DNA of 64,000 nucleotides from Alphaproteobacteria bacterium. GTDB lineage: Bacteria > Pseudomonadota > Alphaproteobacteria > JAEULC01. How positions within the stretch are numbered: position 1 is the first letter of the stretch; each line of letters opens with the position of its first letter. Below the pieces are notes generated by a model. That model worked only from the letters and a program-made list of their open reading frames with translations, searched no databases and was not told the origin of the DNA. The translations under genes were made by a program, and so were the position numbers. Location of the stretch: the NCBI GenBank assembly GCA_023150455.1, contig JAKLKW010000026.1:41982-105981 (forward strand), given 5' to 3'. Positions 30,663 to 36,566 of this stretch are shown here, piece after piece.

Positions 30663-32462
30663 CTACCGGTACAGACGGTCCACCGCCGCCGGCAGGTCCT
30701 TGGGGTCGAACACCGGCAGCGAGCAGATGCGGTTGGAGCAGGCGAAGGCGGCCGGCTCGCCGAGATCGGGATACTCGACGTCGTGGTTGGGCAGCTTGCC
30801 TTTGGCCGGATCCCACCATTCCGCACGCTTGTAGGATGACGGATAGGACAGGGCCGCGGCATAGAGGCCGCGCGCCGTCCGGTCCCCGTGGCCGCCGACG
30901 ACGGTGATGTGGACGGGCTCGCGCTGCAGCTCGCGTTCGGCCAGCAGCACGCCGGGCAGGAAGTCGAGCGCGTCGATCACGGCCGGCGAGGCGAGATAGC
31001 CGAAGCCGCGCTCGGCCGCTTGGCGCCAGCGCTCGTCCCCGCTGTAGCGGTTGAGCAGATTGAGGAAGCGCACGGCGGCGACGTTCTCGTCGCGCGACTT
31101 CGCGGGCTTGCCGAGGACGCCCGAATGCGTCTCGGGCGCGCTGGTGAAGAAGCCGCCGGTCATCGGATCGGCGAAGCGCTCGACGATGAACGCGGCGGCG
31201 GCCGCCGCGCGCTCGAGCCATTCGAGGTCCGAGGTCGATCGGTAGAGCGCGAGGAAGGCCTGGCCCATGGCGAGCGTGTCGCCGAGGAACGGCCCGCCCC
31301 GGTCGGCGGGCCCGTGCGCGAAGCCGCCGCCCCGTTTCGGCTCGTTGGGCAGCGCGCGGTTGGTCGCGATCCAGCGTGCCGCCTTGACCGCGCGCTCGAG
31401 CGCCTCGCCCTCGCCGGTCGCGTCGAAATAGGCGGCCATGGCCGCGATCGCCCAGCCGTTCTCGCGTGCGTAAATGTTGGTGTCGATGCGCGGCATCGGC
31501 CGTTGGCGGCGCCCGGCGTCGTCGAGCGCGAAGAATTCGCTGCCATGGTCGCCCGGAACCGAGTCGGCGTCCTGGCTGGTGTAGAACGCGCCTTCGGGCG
31601 CGGTCAGGAAATCGACGAGGTAGCGGTAGACGCGGCCGGCGGCCTCGCGGTGCTCTTGCGCGGCCCACTGCGCATGGGCCAGCGAATAGAGCATCAGGTG
31701 CGAGGCCTGGATGCTCATGATCTTCTCGTAGTGCGGCGACTTCCAGTCGGCCTTGTCGGAGTACTGGTAGACGCCGCCCCAAGCGGGGTCGATCAGCTTG
31801 AAGGATTGCGTCAGCGTCAGCCGCGCCATGCGCTCGGCGTCCCCGTCTCCGCGCTTGGCGAGGGCGAGGGCCAGTTCCATCGCCTGCGCGTCGACGAACT
31901 TGTGCAGCTCGCCCCAGCCGCCGTTCTCGGCGTCGAAGCCCCTGCGGAAGAAGGCCTCGAGCTCGGCTTTGCGCGCGTCCGGCAGGCGCGTCGTGGCCGA
32001 GGCCTCGGTCTCGGCCGGCTGTTCGCCGTAGTTCACCGGCGAAGGATCGGCGACGACGTCCTTGAGGATGGCGAGGAACTGGCCGGGCGCGCGATAGCCG
32101 CGCAGCTTGGCGATCTCGGTGCCGTCCGGCCCGAAGATGATGGTCGCCGGCCAGCCCCAGTCCTCGTAGCGCAGCGACAGGTCGGGCCGCGAATCCTGGT
32201 CGACCCGCACGGGGATGTAGTGCTTCGCCATGATGTCGAGGACGTCGGCGTCCTTGTAGGTCGTGCCCTCCATCACGTGGCACCAATGGCACCACACGGC
32301 CTTGAGGTAGAGCACGACGAAGCGGTTTTCGCGTTTCGCCTCCTCGAATACCGCGTCCGAGAAGTCGCGCCACGCGACCGTGCCCGTTCCGGCGGCACGC
32401 GCCGGCGCGCCGCCAAAGGCGATCGCCAGAGCGATGACGAGCGTTGCCGCGATCTGCCGCAT
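30663..32462 (-). CDS. Secreted thioredoxin-domain protein, DUF255 (YyaL / SPATA20-like: thioredoxin fold plus six-hairpin glycosidase-like domain)
   Basis: Signal peptide, then a VVLYLKAVWCHWCHVM thioredoxin-like CxxC. It runs co-directionally 62 nt after the DUF2063 gene. Confidence 0.75.
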   Translation of the reverse strand: MRQIAATLVIALAIAFGGAPARAAGTGTVAWRDFSDAVFEEAKRENRFVVLYLKAVWCHWCHVMEGTTYKDADVLDIMAKHYIPVRVDQDSRPDLSLRYEDWGWPATIIFGPDGTEIAKLRGYRAPGQFLAILKDVVADPSPVNYGEQPAETEASATTRLPDARKAELEAFFRRGFDAENGGWGELHKFVDAQAMELALALAKRGDGDAERMARLTLTQSFKLIDPAWGGVYQYSDKADWKSPHYEKIMSIQASHLMLYSLAHAQWAAQEHREAAGRVYRYLVDFLTAPEGAFYTSQDADSVPGDHGSEFFALDDAGRRQRPMPRIDTNIYARENGWAIAAMAAYFDATGEGEALERAVKAARWIATNRALPNEPKRGGGFAHGPADRGGPFLGDTLAMGQAFLALYRSTSDLEWLERAAAAAAFIVERFADPMTGGFFTSAPETHSGVLGKPAKSRDENVAAVRFLNLLNRYSGDERWRQAAERGFGYLASPAVIDALDFLPGVLLAERELQREPVHITVVGGHGDRTARGLYAAALSYPSSYKRAEWWDPAKGKLPNHDVEYPDLGEPAAFACSNRICSLPVFDPKDLPAAVDRLYR

Positions 32463-32524
32463 TGGTACGGGCTCCGTCCTGCCGATGCCGCCGCTTGATA
32501 CGCGCGGCGTCCGGGCGGCGTTCT

Positions 32525-33358
32525 TCACATCGCCGCGATTCGGGTGCCCACGACCCAGCCCGATTCGACCCAGCCGCGCAGCAGCTCGGCCGCGCGCCCG
32601 CCCGCCTGGTCGGCGGGAACGAAGGCGCAGAGGCCCTCGCACAGCACCCCGAAAGCGCTGCCCTGCCGCGCCGCGTCGAGCGCCCAGGCTTCATCCTCGG
32701 TCATCGAGCGGAAGAAGGTCTCGCCGTCCCGCCGCCAGACGGCGAAGGGAACCGGTGCCGCGCGTGCCTCGGGTGGCGGAATGTCGGCATCCTCGCCCTC
32801 GGCGCCCAGCGCGTTCCACAGCTCGGGCACGGTCCAGCGCGAGACGACGGCCTGCAGCGACGGATGGAAGGCAAGGACCAGGCCCGGCCAGTCCGCCGGC
32901 GCGATGGCGGCGATGGCGGCGACGTCGAGGGGCGCGGCGTCGGCCGCGTCGAAGGCACCCGCGAGCGCCCATTCCAGCCGTGCAAGCTCCGCCAGCGCGG
33001 GCGTGGCGTGCCAGGGCGCCTGTTCGAAGAGGAAGCCGGCCAGCGCGTCGCCGAACCAGCGGATCGAGAAGTGCCGGCTGGGATGTGCCGCGATGTAGGC
33101 GCGCGCGAGGCGGTCGAAATCGTCGTCGCCCAGCACGCGCTTCAGGCGGGGAAAGTTCGTCTCCAGCGCCTCGATCAGGCGCAGCGCGTAGGCGTCGCGA
33201 TAGACGCGCAGGAGCGTCGCGGCATGGGCCTTGGCGGTGGCGCGCACCTTGCCGTCCATCGCCCGGTCGTCGCCCAGGATATAGGCCTGGAAATCCGCCT
33301 GCAGGCGTTCGAGCGGCGGCGTGTTGCTGCGCCCCGGGCCATGCGGGGAAGCGTTCAT
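32525..33358 (-). CDS. DUF2063 family protein (HvfC-like partner of DUF692 enzymes)
   Basis: Its start overlaps the DUF692 stop as ATGA. The upstream in-frame extension of the ORF is rejected. Confidence 0.65.
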
Positions 33359-34197
33359 GCGGCGCGGCTGGCGAGCGCTTGCGCCGCGACCGCGCGCATT
33401 CGGTCCACCTCGCGCAGAAGCTCCGGCAAGGGCGGGATGTTGGCGTCGCGTTCGATCATCGCCGGCACCGGGCCGAAGCGTCGCACCGCCTCGGCGAACA
33501 GCGCCCAGACCGGGTCGATCACGTCGTGATCGTGCGTGTCGATGATGTGGCTGCCGTTGTTCTGGTGCCCGGCCAGGTGGAACTGGCGCACACACTTGGG
33601 CGGCACGGCGGCCAGGTAGTCGAGCGCGTCGAACTCGTGGTTGAAGGCACTGACATAGATGTTGTTCACGTCGAGCAGGATGTCGCAGTCCGCGGCTTCG
33701 GCGACCGCCGCCAGAAACTCCCATTCCGGCACGGCGGAGAAGCTGTAGTCGACATAGCTCGACACGTTCTCCAGCGCGATGCGCCGGCCGAGGAATTCCT
33801 GCACGCGGCGCACGCGCTCGGCGATGTGCGCGACAGCCTCTTCGGTGTGCGGCACCGGCAGCAGGTCGTGCATGTTGAGGCCCGCCGAGCCGGTCCAGCA
33901 CAGATGGTCCGAGATCAGCGCGGGCTCGATCCGCCGCGCCAGCGCACGGACCTGCTCGAGGTAGTCCAGGTCGAGCGGGTCGGTCGATCCGATCGACAGC
34001 GACACGCCATGCATGACGACTGGGTAGTTCGCGCGGATGCGCTCGAGATGGGCAAGCGGCGGCCCGCCGGGAACCAGGTAGTTCTCGGTCAGGATCTCGA
34101 GCCAGTCGAGCTTCGGTCGGGTCTCCTGGATCGCTTCGTAGTGGTCGGTGCGAAGCCCCAGGCCGAATCCGCCGAACGCGCGGGCGGGGGCGGTCAT
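33355..34197 (-). CDS. DUF692 family protein (MbnB/HvfB-like multinuclear-iron TIM-barrel enzyme)
   Basis: 280 aa with xylose-isomerase-like TIM-barrel signatures (LDWLEIL..., HLAGH). Confidence 0.8.
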
Positions 34198-34300
34198 GAA
34201 AACACCATAGCCCGAAACGGAGCGGGCGCCCGGACCTTTCGGTCGGGACGCCCGGCCCGTCAGTCCGTATCGGACGTGGCCGAAAGGACGTCGTTCGTGG

Positions 34301-34549
34301 TCAGCTGACCTTGCCGCCCGACTTCTCGCACGCGGCCTTGTCCTTCGCTTCGGTCCAGCCCTTGCCCTTGCACGCGTTCATGCCCTTGCAGGCGCTCGAC
34401 GCGGTCTTGCAGGCGCTCTGGCCCTTGCAGGCGTTGCCGCCCACGCACTTCACGCCCGCGGCCTGGGCCGGGGTGATGGTGCTCACGATGCCCGCGGTCA
34501 GAAACGCGGCAGCCGCGGTGGCGGCGAGGACGATGCCAGTCTTCGACAT
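34301..34549 (-). CDS. DUF2282-like small secreted Cys-rich peptide (HvfA-like precursor) with four A-C-K-G/T repeats
   Basis: 82 aa. Signal peptide, then [32 protein letters not shown]...CEKSGG. Confidence 0.7.
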
Positions 34550-34916
34550 GATTCACTTCCCTTGAATGTTAGTTGCGGTGGATCGCGAGAACCGTTGCGA
34601 TCATAGCTTTTACGCAAGACGGATGGGAATGGATGCCCGGAGCGGGAGCAGGCCCCGTCGCACGGGCCGCGCCCGTCTTGCTGCGATGCAGCATAACACG
34701 CCATCCGATCAACATTATCAAACGATAACCAAGGTTGCGGCGCCGCATTCTGGATCGAGGGCTTGGCTGCACGCGCAGCCGCTGAAGGTGCGGTCGTCGT
34801 TTCACAAAGCCGTGCGCGACCGGTGACTGAGTGGACAGGCGAAGCTTGCGGCGCCATGGCCGACCGGGCGAACTCCGCAGTTGAGAAGTTTCGTCCGATC
34901 CCCGATACAACCGCGC

Positions 34917-36566
34917 ATGCGTTACCCGCGGCCGCTCGACGATCTTCCACCGCGCCGCGTGAGGACGGCCAAGCTGTGCTTCATGCTCGGCATGCCGCTC
35001 GGCTTCGGCATTCTGTCGGTCCTGCTGCGGCAGGACTACAACTGGGATTTGCTCAACTATCACTACTACAATTCCTTCGCGTGGCTGAACGGCCGCTACG
35101 GACACGACATCGACGCGGCGGTGACGCCGAACGGCCATTTCAATCCGCTGCTGCACCTGCCCTGGTATCTGGCGATCGGCGCGGTGCCGCCGAAGCTGAT
35201 CGGCTTTGCCATCGGCGCCGTGCAGGGCCTGAACGCGGTCCTGCTGTTCGCGATCGCGCGCGCCGTGCTGCCGGCCGCGAGCGCCGCGCAGCGCGAGCTG
35301 GCGGCGCTGGCGCTGGCGTTCGTCGGCATGCTCGGCGCCGGCAACCTGAGCGAGATCGGCACCAGCTTCGCCGACAACATCCTGAGCCTGCCGGTCCTCG
35401 GCGGACTGCTGCTGCTGGTCGCCGAGCCCGAACGCCTGGCGCACGGGCGCATCGGTCCGCCGCTCGCGATTGCCGCCGGCGCCGGCATGCTGGTCGGGCT
35501 CGTCGCCGGCTTGAAGCCCACGATGTGGCTCTACGGCGTGGGCATGGGCTTCGCCTGCCTGAGCCTGCCGGCGACGCCGGGCCGGCGCATCGCGATCGCC
35601 GCCGGGATGTCCGCAGGCGCGCTGGCCGGCGCGGCCACCAGCGGCGGCTTCTGGATGGTGGAGCTGTGGCATCGCTACGCCAATCCGATGTTCCCGTTCT
35701 TCAACAACTGGTTCCGTTCGCCTTGGGCGGCGCCGTTGAGCAACAACAATCTCACCTACCTGCCCAAGGGCTTCTTCGATGCGCTGACGCGGCCGCTGCG
35801 CTTTCCGTTCAACCATCGGCTCGGCAGCGAGATCAGGCTGGTGGATTGGCGACTCCCGCTGCTCTATGCGCTGGGCTGGGCCGGGATCGCGGCCGCGGTG
35901 CTCGCCGCCGCGCGCGGGCGGCTCGGCGCGATGGCGCGCGCCGATGTCGGGCGCTCCGCGATGATGCTGGCCTGGCTCGCCGGGAGCTTCGCCGCGTGGC
36001 TCGTCATGTTCGGCATCTATCGCTATGCCGTGGCGATCGAGATGCTGGCGCCGATCGGCATCGTGCTGCTGCTCGACCGTCTGGGCCTTGGCGGACGGCG
36101 CCTGGCAGGCAGCGCCGCCGCCGCGATGCTGGTGCTGGTCGCGACCACGCGCGTCGCCGGCTGGGGACACGTGCCGTGGAGCGCGCATCATTTCGGCGTC
36201 GAGCCGCCGGCCCTAGCCGATCCGGCGCGCACGCTGGTCGTGCTGCCGGCGACCGAGCCGGCGGGGTTCGTCGTGCCGTTCTTCCCGCGCCCGGTCCGCT
36301 TCGTGCGCGTGTCGCGCTGGCCGCCGGTGTGGACCGATCCGCCGACGGGCATGGAACGTCTGGCGTTCGACATCGTCGCGCGGCACGACGGGCCGATCTA
36401 TGCGCTGTTCCGCTCGAGCGAGCACTACGCCGCGATGGAAGCGCTGGAGCGGCGCGGCCTGGCGCTCAGGCGCGGCGCCTGCGAACGGCTGGTCGTCCGC
36501 GCCGAGATGCACAAGCGCGATGGGCTCCTGTTCTGCGCGCTCGACCGGATCGCGAAGGCAAACTGA
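34917..36566 (+). CDS. Polytopic membrane protein, GT87/DUF2029-like glycosyltransferase fold (start uncertain, 34881-34983)
   Basis: Many TM segments. The WDLLNYHYYN...HFNPLLHLPWY region is typical of this family. Confidence 0.5.
   Translation: MRYPRPLDDLPPRRVRTAKLCFMLGMPLGFGILSVLLRQDYNWDLLNYHYYNSFAWLNGRYGHDIDAAVTPNGHFNPLLHLPWYLAIGAVPPKLIGFAIGAVQGLNAVLLFAIARAVLPAASAAQRELAALALAFVGMLGAGNLSEIGTSFADNILSLPVLGGLLLLVAEPERLAHGRIGPPLAIAAGAGMLVGLVAGLKPTMWLYGVGMGFACLSLPATPGRRIAIAAGMSAGALAGAATSGGFWMVELWHRYANPMFPFFNNWFRSPWAAPLSNNNLTYLPKGFFDALTRPLRFPFNHRLGSEIRLVDWRLPLLYALGWAGIAAAVLAAARGRLGAMARADVGRSAMMLAWLAGSFAAWLVMFGIYRYAVAIEMLAPIGIVLLLDRLGLGGRRLAGSAAAAMLVLVATTRVAGWGHVPWSAHHFGVEPPALADPARTLVVLPATEPAGFVVPFFPRPVRFVRVSRWPPVWTDPPTGMERLAFDIVARHDGPIYALFRSSEHYAAMEALERRGLALRRGACERLVVRAEMHKRDGLLFCALDRIAKAN

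Follow-up and report, generated by a model that had tools for sequence, protein, structure and literature searches.

The locus described here raises the question of whether a gene for a periplasmic DUF255 protein belongs functionally to the peptide-modification cluster that it follows. Open reading frames and translations of the window (the whole stretch of DNA analysed, 64,000 nucleotides) place four genes on the minus strand, in the order precursor, MNIO (DUF692) maturase, DUF2063 partner and DUF255, at the coordinates that an original prediction from the same DNA had given. Our reading, to which we assign a probability of about 0.7, is that the first three genes form a Buf2-type bufferin cluster, bufA2-bufB-bufC, to which the periplasmic DUF255 gene is added as a functionally linked fourth.

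Identity of the cluster core

The first gene, bufA2 (34301..34549, minus strand), encodes a bufferin precursor of 82 aa that matched the NCBIfam model BufA2 (NF050166; Buf_6/12Cys bufferins) over positions 3-78 of its 79, scoring 78.7 bits where 60 are required. Read by eye, its N-terminus resembles a signal peptide, with a K-containing n-region, a hydrophobic stretch and the sequence AQA|AG, at which a Sec-type signal peptide is probably cleaved. The 52-aa core contains all six Cys of the precursor (residues 35, 41, 47, 54, 60 and 74) and the four units NACKG, SACKT, SACKG and NACKG; signal peptide, six Cys and four [N/S]ACK[G/T] units are thus seen in the sequence as the original prediction had described them. 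When roles are transferred from Buf2 of Caulobacter (PMC11626156), CysI (KCVGG) and CysVI (AACEK) form a predicted disulfide pair, and the four Cys of the [N/S]ACK[G/T] units are predicted thiooxazole sites. Orthologues in the related loci L081-L085 are 81-96% identical.

The second gene, bufB (33355..34197, minus strand), encodes the 280-aa MNIO maturase, which lacks a signal peptide. It matched Pfam MbnB_TglH_ChrH (PF05114) with an E-value of 3.7e-110 and NCBIfam MNIO_BufB (NF050167) with 375.4 bits, above the cut-off of 310, and its nearest solved structure is 3BWW (6.9e-48). The 277-aa product of the third gene, bufC (32525..33358, minus strand), matched Pfam DUF2063 (PF09836; 83.2 bits, cut-off 27.2, E = 1.5e-23). 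DUF2063 partners are described in the literature as RRE-type, and no solved relative of BufC was found by sequence. The model libraries showed no BufC-specific profile. Since two of the genes exceed curated equivalog cut-offs, the match of the core goes beyond chance, and we assign it on these models to the Buf2-type bufferin ('captophorin') clusters. The expectation of a DUF692 and DUF2063 RiPP cluster with a secreted, Cys-rich and probably metal-binding precursor is borne out.

The original prediction had gone further, placing the precursor in DUF2282 and the enzyme among the HvfABC or methanobactin systems, with heterocycle or thioamide groups as the products. A DUF2282 match was absent from the precursor at E ≤ 0.01 across all Pfam-A, in which its sole match was a sub-threshold one to DUF7640 (17.9 bits, cut-off 28.1), and membership of the Buf1/DUF2282 bufferins was rejected on this ground. 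HvfABC/oxazolin membership was rejected because the precursor sequence has no EGKCG repeats and because BufB and BufC remained below the HvfB (285.5 bits, cut-off 360) and HvfC (39.9 bits, cut-off 142) cut-offs. Methanobactin MbnABC was rejected as well: BufB scored 66.3 bits against an MbnB cut-off of 325, the partner is a DUF2063 protein and not MbnC, and the precursor has a signal peptide, which the short leader-core precursors of methanobactins lack. The published chemistry of the family is 5-thiooxazole formation, with -4 Da per modified Cys, rather than oxazolone or thioamide formation, and the structure of oxazolin itself has been revised to a 5-thiooxazole. A cluster of the HvfABC/DUF2282 type, or one resembling the methanobactin clusters, with oxazolone/thioamide groups as its products, would have the MNIO superfamily and the DUF2063 partner in common with the locus, and would fit the 285 bits scored with the HvfB model, but with the BufA2 and BufB models exceeding their cut-offs where those of HvfB, HvfC and MbnB fall short, we consider it very improbable.

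The cluster core is ordinary: descriptions of the triad date back to 2024, and novelty is limited to the DUF255 extension. As to the surroundings, the 'GT87-like' label proposed for the divergently encoded 561-aa membrane protein found no Pfam or NCBIfam support. This gene and SugE are missing from two of four distinct close-relative arrangements (L082; L084 with its near-duplicate L085), which fits the earlier view that they are probably unrelated to the cluster. No sigF or nrsF genes were seen adjoining the cluster.

Transcription signals and spacers

A consensus scan upstream of bufA2 returned one site, against 0.3 expected, at 34600..34629 (minus strand; -35 TTCCCA, 18-nt spacer, -10 TATGAT), a candidate sigma-70-type promoter of the cluster. 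In the upstream regions of four close relatives, neither the -10 pattern TATNNT nor a CGGTTCT further downstream varies. The 103-nt spacer between the bufA2 stop (34301) and the bufB start (34197) contains a GC-rich hairpin, GGGCGUCCCGACCG-AAAG-GUCCGGGCGCCC, and after it a U-rich stretch (34200..34261, minus strand). RNA folding of this spacer gave -58 kcal/mol (z = -2.78), and a terminator scan placed a terminator-like match at 34227-34210. A hairpin with T-tract occupies the same position in L081-L084 and also in L087 and L089, there with unrelated sequence. Its probable function, as a partial terminator or attenuator, is to set the ratio of precursor to enzyme.

Of the ATGA-coupled starts that had been predicted, the one between the DUF692 and DUF2063 genes is present, with the bufC start overlapping the bufB stop at 33355-33358; precursor and DUF692 genes are separated by the spacer described above. 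The gap between bufC and the DUF255 gene measures 62 nt, and no terminator was found in it, which argues for co-transcription of the two genes.

The DUF255 protein

The fourth gene (30663..32462, minus strand) encodes a periplasmic DUF255 (YyaL/SSP411-type) protein of 599 aa, whose start (MRQIAAT) agrees with that of the 599-aa, 100% identical database entry P0001. The unit ends with this gene, directly next to a GNAT gene of convergent orientation. The product matched Pfam Thioredox_DsbH (PF03190; 78.6 bits, cut-off 27, E = 6.8e-22). With its distance from bufC, its signal-peptide-like N-terminus and the WCHWC motif of its thioredoxin-fold domain, it corresponds to the secreted fourth gene product of the original prediction. 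WCHWC is invariant across 68 DUF255 homologues. In the protein, the signal peptide and the thioredoxin domain are followed by an (alpha/alpha)6 barrel and by a small C-terminal domain in which a CxxxxC (C575, C580) is invariant. A Foldseek search with its AF2 model (pLDDT 92.8) gave as best full-length match 7TKV, Brucella Bab1_2064 (TM 0.75), and the barrel next resembles AGE-type (AGE-family) epimerases (E ~1e-10). The best named NCBIfam models for the thioredoxin domain were DsbD-gamma, DsbH and TsoB, all far below their cut-offs. The searched literature contained no established biochemical function for any member of the DUF255 family.

Linkage of DUF255 genes to Buf2 clusters

Linkage was surveyed from the side of DUF255 in periplasmic homologues of ~600 aa, 30-58% identical, at 80 metagenome loci. 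At 18 of these 80 the DUF255 gene lay beside a BufA2-MNIO-DUF2063 cluster, with a BufB gene in the flank. The same held for 13 of the 36 loci whose flanks reached at least 2 kb to either side and for 8 of the 22 with at least 6 kb; five of eight looked-up contigs with distant DUF255 homologues were also linked. Linked genes occur in 9 of 37 sequence clusters (60% identity), intermixed with unlinked clusters, and 9 of the 20 informative clusters are linked (P ~7e-11 against a base rate of 2% that was assumed rather than measured). The linked loci have at least seven different gene orders or orientations, the precursors adjoining DUF255 are BufA2 (76-82 bits) or BufA2-like, and a signal-peptide-like N-terminus together with WCHWC is found in 27 of the 28 linked proteins listed, the remaining one (L145) running off a contig end. 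In close relatives the DUF255 gene (74-89% identity) follows bufC co-directionally in all four that were looked up, and the genes on either side vary.

DUF255 thus accompanies Buf2 clusters repeatedly, across distant lineages and gene orders, an association that has so far gone undescribed. As the original prediction had held, it stands outside the described operons: no published operon description or bufferin cluster in the searched literature includes it. That prediction had named the case in which DUF255 is never syntenic with the triad in relatives as one of incidental adjacency, and linkage was instead found in distant lineages and in varied orders. Seen from the opposite side, DUF255 was present at just 2 of 80 BufB-centred loci and is thus a minority accessory of Buf2 systems. 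Since most Buf2 systems work without it, DUF255 is dispensable for the modification itself. Of the earlier suggestion that the locus is an undescribed variant, what holds is the recurring, unreported extension by DUF255, rare as it is among BufB loci, and not the triad.

In the clade of the window itself the flanking genes are also syntenic, so that conservation there alone could reflect inheritance. The DUF255 gene might accordingly have been kept beside bufC by inherited gene order, perhaps as a member of a downstream choline-kinase-like/DAO-GCV_T unit. In L082-L085, a co-directional choline-kinase-like gene does follow 28-45 nt after DUF255 within a syntenic wider neighbourhood, and the scarcity of DUF255 among BufB loci would suit this explanation. 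It is disfavoured, and we judge it improbable, by independent linkage in eight further clusters (60% identity), among them those of Bradyrhizobium and Nevskia, in which the gene orders differ, and by the convergent GNAT gene that cuts DUF255 off from the downstream unit in the window and in L081 while the bufC-DUF255 junction is intact.

Recurrent co-neighbours of linked DUF255 genes are DsbD_TM, DoxX, a creatininase-family gene and a gene for an HExxH protein; in the Bradyrhizobium-type version, the DsbD_TM gene and DoxX lie directly upstream of DUF255. None of these four genes occurs within the 64-kb window. DUF255 is convergent or kilobases away in L041, L089, L171, L002 and L119, and co-transcription with the buf genes is therefore not general. 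Unlinked family members are numerous (L086, L088, L173 and the plasmid L170), and L173 carries the DsbD_TM-DoxX-DUF255 trio without any MNIO gene. Such observations, together with the many Buf2 clusters that lack DUF255, would be expected of a general periplasmic redox or copper-stress protein, for example one that repairs copper-induced wrong disulfides like ScsC/DsbG and shares regulation and neighbourhood with the bufferin without having it as a substrate; the convergent and distant placements suit co-regulated neighbours over one operon. Such a general role is possible but doubtful. The sampled linkage is specific to BufA2 or BufA2-like clusters and survives many rearrangements, although sequence alone hardly separates a general role from the preferred functional link to the bufferin.

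Proposed mechanism

For the core pathway, family membership is taken from the window sequence and the chemistry is borrowed from the literature on Caulobacter Buf2. The Caulobacter precursor has a signal peptide and six Cys, of which the four central ones are modified by -4 Da each and CysI and CysVI form a disulfide; a minor -20 Da form has an extra labile S-S, and the system is induced by copper (PMC11626156). DUF2063-dependent MNIOs in general carry out this 5-thiooxazole chemistry, and aggregation of the modified peptides is put down by the authors to disulfide formation. By analogy, BufB and BufC would oxidise the four central [N/S]ACK[G/T] Cys of BufA2 to 5-thiooxazoles in the cytoplasm, at -4 Da each. 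The modified precursor would be exported via Sec with removal of the signal peptide, its first and last Cys would form the disulfide, and the folded product of ~52 aa would chelate periplasmic copper and so buffer copper stress. The hairpin after bufA2 probably provides precursor transcript in excess of enzyme transcripts.

DUF255 is exported to the same compartment as the bufferin, and here is the only accessory retained from the recurring set of DsbD_TM/CcdA-like, DoxX, DUF255, creatininase-family and HExxH proteins. Its linkage is observed, and for its role we prefer a scheme in which a membrane protein of the CcdA/DsbD type, encoded at another place in the genome, supplies the CHWC domain with electrons. 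With these, DUF255 would hold the bufferin's thiooxazole thiols, which are prone to oxidation, in a reduced and copper-competent state, or would resolve wrong bufferin disulfides. We infer that DUF255 may be a reductase for the thiooxazole thiols; the reductive direction is suggested by the periplasmic WCHWC, the matches to DsbD-gamma, DsbH and TsoB, and the adjoining DsbD_TM and DoxX genes in Bradyrhizobium-type loci. The large (alpha/alpha)6 barrel is not explained by this proposal. More speculatively, the periplasmic ~600-aa subfamily could be a dedicated bufferin-handling enzyme, whose CHWC, possibly with CxxxxC and barrel, acts directly on thiooxazole-containing Buf2 by reducing oxidised pairs or by loading or unloading copper, within an undescribed module of CcdA-like DsbD_TM, DoxX, DUF255, creatininase-type peptidase and HExxH protein. 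If true, this would give the uncharacterised DUF255/YyaL/SPATA20 family its first concrete substrate.

Significance and comparison with known systems

Among MNIO-made peptides, bufferins (captophorins) are considered the largest group, and a copper defence that is widespread in bacteria. In published surveys, the core comprises the precursor, the MNIO and DUF2063, at times joined by DoxX. One of them set a limit of 10 bp from a core gene for any further gene, and accessories 60-600 nt away were therefore invisible to it. The linkage suggests that in some soil lineages, among them the alphaproteobacterial MAG clade of the window, Bradyrhizobium, Nevskia-like bacteria and unassigned metagenome lineages with a divergent precursor, the bufferin system is supplemented by a periplasmic redox module. 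It raises the question of how oxidation-prone thiooxazole thiols stay functional in an oxidising periplasm, and for the DUF255 family it offers a first lead to function.

The closest known system is the buf2 operon of Caulobacter vibrioides (bufA2-bufB2-bufC2, CCNA_03001-02999; PMC11626156, PMC12452194), which has in common with the window the six-Cys precursor with signal peptide, the BufB-type MNIO, the DUF2063 partner, the gene order and the lack of DoxX; the window cluster adds the periplasmic DUF255 gene as a fourth co-directional gene. The Buf1 operon bufA1B1C1D1 (DUF2282 precursor and DoxX) shares the enzyme pair, the logic of periplasmic copper buffering and a redox-type fourth gene that is dispensable for modification, whereas the precursor in the window is without DUF2282 and the accessory is DUF255 rather than DoxX. 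HvfABC/oxazolin of Haemophilus and fontiphorin, also 'captophorins' (PMC11252979; bioRxiv 10.1101/2025.11.18.689057), likewise combine an MNIO and a DUF2063-type partner, act on a Cys-rich substrate that is secreted and share the copper-linked 5-thiooxazole chemistry, but their precursors carry EGKCG (Lys-Cys) repeats and that of the window carries Cys-Lys units in a BufA2 frame.

On the side of the accessory, Bab1_2064 of Brucella abortus (7TKV) and the YyaL/SSP411/SPATA20 family share the thioredoxin domain with CHWC, the (alpha/alpha)6 barrel and the C-terminal domain. 7TKV, itself uncharacterised, is only 22% identical, and the ~600-aa subfamily of the window differs in having a signal peptide and in adjoining Buf2 clusters. 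The DsbD/CcdA-fed periplasmic reductases (DsbD-gamma, DsbH) resemble DUF255 in their periplasmic CxxC thioredoxin domain, in the DsbD_TM gene that neighbours DUF255 in Bradyrhizobium-type clusters, though not in the window, and in the copper-related context. ScsB/ScsC of copper tolerance is a comparable DsbD/CcdA-fed periplasmic thioredoxin-like system. Compared with DsbD-gamma and DsbH, DUF255 carries an extra 450-aa barrel and a C-terminal domain that have no counterpart there.

Identity and organization of the cluster

From our profile searches, we conclude that the cluster is almost certainly a Buf2 ('Buf_6/12Cys') bufferin cluster, rather than the DUF2282/HvfABC-type cluster of the original prediction. 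The 82-aa precursor (bufA2, 34301-34549, minus strand) scored 78.7 bits against NCBIfam BufA2 (cut-off 60). The 280-aa DUF692/MNIO enzyme (bufB, 33355-34197, minus strand) belongs to Pfam MbnB_TglH_ChrH (3.7e-110) and scored 375.4 bits against MNIO_BufB (cut-off 310), but stayed below the cut-offs for HvfB (285.5 versus 360) and MbnB (66 versus 325). The 277-aa partner (bufC, 32525-33358, minus strand) belongs to Pfam DUF2063 (1.5e-23) and fell below the HvfC cut-off (39.9 versus 142); a search of solved structures gave no match for BufC. These curated cut-offs rule out the DUF2282, Hvf and Mbn assignments, and the whole of Pfam-A gave no DUF2282 match in the precursor. The accession PF09601 initially cited for DUF2282 differs from the PF10048 used in the 2025 survey (PMC12452194), which is harmless because all Pfam-A families were scanned, and the outcome is unaffected.

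The precursor consists of 30 residues followed by 52, and its signal peptide, six Cys and four [N/S]ACK[G/T] units are all present as originally described. The 599-aa DUF255 protein (30663-32462, minus strand) completes a head-to-tail arrangement of four genes. The G+C content of approximately 70% gives rise to many long spurious ORFs in this region; the start of the DUF255 protein, MRQIAAT, is shared with a 599-aa database entry of 100% identity, which comes from a MAG labelled 'Alphaproteobacteria bacterium'. The stops of the DUF255 gene and a convergent GNAT gene lie two bases apart, which places DUF255 at the end of the unit. ATGA-coupled starts had been proposed throughout the triad; we found such coupling at the DUF692/DUF2063 junction only, the precursor and enzyme genes being 103 nt apart. 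That spacer contains a GC-rich hairpin with a U-rich tail (34200-34261, minus strand; fold z = -2.78). A hairpin with a T-tract occurs at the same position in four close relatives (L081-L084), in a Bradyrhizobium cluster (L087 10345-10463) and at locus L089 (11600-11663), the structure being kept while the sequence is unrelated between distant lineages. This suggests a partial terminator or attenuator, which would raise the precursor:enzyme ratio. The 62-nt gap between bufC and the DUF255 gene has no terminator and no unusual structure (z = +0.46).

The sole promoter-like match in the region is a sigma-70-like site, TTCCCA-18-TATGAT (34629-34600, minus strand), and no ECF/SigF-type promoter was recognised upstream of bufA2. 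The -10 box is invariant in the upstream regions of the four close relatives (L081-L084), as is a CGGTTCT 8-10 nt 3' of it, followed by GCAAC/GCAGC (window 34560-34600, minus strand). The CGGTTCT may serve as an operator or as an element of the 5'-UTR. We did not find it in the distant lineages, and no upstream motif common to these and the clade of the window was found. The divergent 561-aa multi-pass membrane protein (34881-36566, plus strand) was labelled GT87-like, which no Pfam or NCBIfam match supports; among all fetched loci, its homologues occur at L081 and L083 only.

Linkage of DUF255 genes with Buf2 clusters

Each of the four close relatives that we looked up (identity 74-89%) keeps the order bufA2-bufB-bufC-DUF255, although their flanks are also syntenic and the conserved order could thus reflect inheritance. 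The gene-neighbourhood comparison of distant homologues is decisive here, and bears out the recurrence of DUF255 next to the triad, with at least seven gene orders among the linked loci. Bradyrhizobium sp. USDA 4451 has the order DsbD_TM-DoxX-DUF255-bufA2-bufB-bufC-329aa, and at loci L089 and L171 the DUF255 gene is convergent with bufC-B-A2. Locus L172 and the contig of database entry P0094 combine (DsbD_TM)-DoxX-DUF255 with two precursors, MNIO, DUF2063, a creatininase-family gene and a gene of ~320 aa, while three other distant contigs looked up carry DUF255 without buf linkage.

A metagenome scan with the DUF255 alignment yielded 80 loci (30-54% identity), 18 of which have BufB in the flank; the share is 13/36 among loci whose two flanks each span at least 2 kb, and 8/22 where each spans at least 6 kb. 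At 60% identity, linked DUF255 genes occupy 9 of 37 clusters and are mixed with unlinked genes; the clusters were derived by UPGMA on pairwise identity, a coarser method than a true phylogeny. Nine of the 20 informative clusters are linked, corresponding to P ~7e-11 against an assumed base rate of 2%. The signal peptide and WCHWC are present in every linked DUF255 protein with its N-terminus in the recovered contig (27 of the 28 listed; that of L145 lies beyond the contig end), and the adjoining precursors, outside a divergent group of metagenome loci (below), score above the BufA2 cut-off (76-82 bits). Linkage that persists through repeated rearrangement in distant lineages is a classic sign of functional connection, and we estimate the probability that DUF255 is functionally connected to the Buf2 cluster at roughly 75-80%.

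Seen from the enzyme side, DUF255 is no general part of Buf2 clusters. Scanning a single genome per species with BufB as the seed yielded 80 loci, mostly gammaproteobacterial and 58-73% identical; 68 of them have a BufA2-like gene, 78 BufC and only 2 a DUF255 homologue, namely L041 of Nevskia (convergent) and L002 (2.3 kb away). Close relatives of the window are missing from this set, whose best match is 73% identical, and it says little about the clade of the window.

Some linked loci differ in their precursors. Metagenome loci L101, L102, L108-L113 and L119 encode secreted precursors of a divergent, CKG-rich subclass (HACKGQNSCKGKGGCKxxDNGCKGKNSCKGKGGC) next to MNIO/DUF2063/DoxX/DUF255, with BufA2 model scores of 34-42 bits against a cut-off of 60; L117 has a 153-aa multi-repeat version. 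Two tandem BufA2 genes precede one MNIO gene in the Bradyrhizobium-like clusters of L172 (10145-10944) and the P0094 contig. A plasmid search with DUF255 found one Bradyrhizobium copy, a periplasmic DUF255 gene amid IS elements and without buf genes in its vicinity, on a conjugative plasmid of Bradyrhizobium sp. Ash2021 (L170, NZ_CP100605.1, 8923-10647).

Other genes recur around these clusters. One encodes a protein of ~329 aa that has a hydrophobic segment at its N-terminus and an HEMVH (HExxH) motif, and belongs to no Pfam family (L087 12163-13152; also L001, L002, L006, L040, L056, L090-L099, L104, L143, L149 and L172); it adjoins Buf2 clusters (5/80 BufB loci) and also DUF255 genes without any MNIO gene. 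The other is a creatininase-family (PF02633) gene in or beside Buf2/DUF255 clusters (L172 12791-13570, L083 4955-5656, L002 6907-7653; further at L056, L104, L090-L099, L134 and L145). The creatininase family includes the RiPP peptidase MftE. By tblastn, the 64-kb window has no DsbD_TM, DoxX, 329-aa HExxH or creatininase gene.

Predicted function of the DUF255 protein

Like BufA2, the DUF255 protein carries an export signal, its N-terminus being signal-peptide-like. It has a Trx domain with WCHWC (PF03190, 78.6 bits), and C575 and C580 near its C-terminus are invariant among homologues. A confident AlphaFold model (68 homologues; pLDDT 92.8) places an (alpha/alpha)6 barrel after the Trx domain and ends in a small C-terminal domain of beta/alpha type. 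The top structural match, also seen at the sequence level, is the uncharacterised Brucella protein Bab1_2064 (7TKV, TM 0.75), and the barrel next matches AGE-type sugar epimerases. The best named matches of the Trx domain, all far below cut-off, are DsbD-gamma, DsbH and TsoB, which are reducing-branch proteins. The searched literature gave no function for bacterial DUF255/YyaL proteins.

DUF255 may act in the periplasm as a thiol-disulfide oxidoreductase of the reducing branch, with electrons supplied by a CcdA/DsbD_TM-type protein; the DsbD_TM gene lies next door in Bradyrhizobium-type clusters, and in this genome elsewhere, if at all. It would keep the thiooxazole thiols of the bufferin reduced, or correct disulfides involving the bufferin, a specific mechanism that we propose tentatively and at clearly less than even odds. 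The main alternative is that DUF255 is a general copper-stress redox protein merely sharing regulation with the bufferin genes. This is favoured by locus L173 (6500-9794), where a DsbD_TM-DoxX-DUF255 trio without MNIO or DUF2063 gene indicates that the redox module exists on its own. Sequence cannot separate these two readings.

Comparison with described bufferin systems

What we say here of thiooxazole chemistry, of copper chelation and of thiols prone to oxidation comes from the literature on other clusters. Buf2 was described in Caulobacter in 2024 (PMC11626156) and surveyed in 2025 (PMC12452194). In the Caulobacter peptide, each of four central Cys loses 4 Da to become a 5-thiooxazole, a disulfide joins the first and last Cys, and a minor -20 Da form contains one further S-S bond, which is labile; copper induces the operon, which gives protection against the metal (PMC11626156). 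The four [N/S]ACK[G/T] units of our precursor correspond to these four modified Cys. A later preprint revised oxazolin and extended the thiooxazole chemistry to all DUF2063-dependent MNIOs, including those with precursors of 'multiple Cys-Lys motifs', and reported aggregation of the modified peptides, blamed on disulfide formation (bioRxiv 10.1101/2025.11.18.689057).

The companions named in the searched bufferin literature are DoxX, sigma/anti-sigma genes and a few redox enzymes, and never a thioredoxin, DUF255, creatininase-family or HExxH protein, in agreement with the prediction that DUF255 lies outside the described operons. A literature search for a thioredoxin-MNIO-bufferin link found nothing relevant, and the searched supplements of the 2025 survey have no PF03190 or thioredoxin terms. 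Since that survey counted an unrelated gene only if it lay no more than 10 bp from the core (PMC12452194), a partner 62-600 nt away would have been missed. The bufA2-bufB-bufC core is an already known system, and its DUF255 extension, absent from the searched bufferin literature, is the new part. The link is not surprising in kind; it is useful to the bufferin/captophorin field and provides a first functional lead for DUF255.
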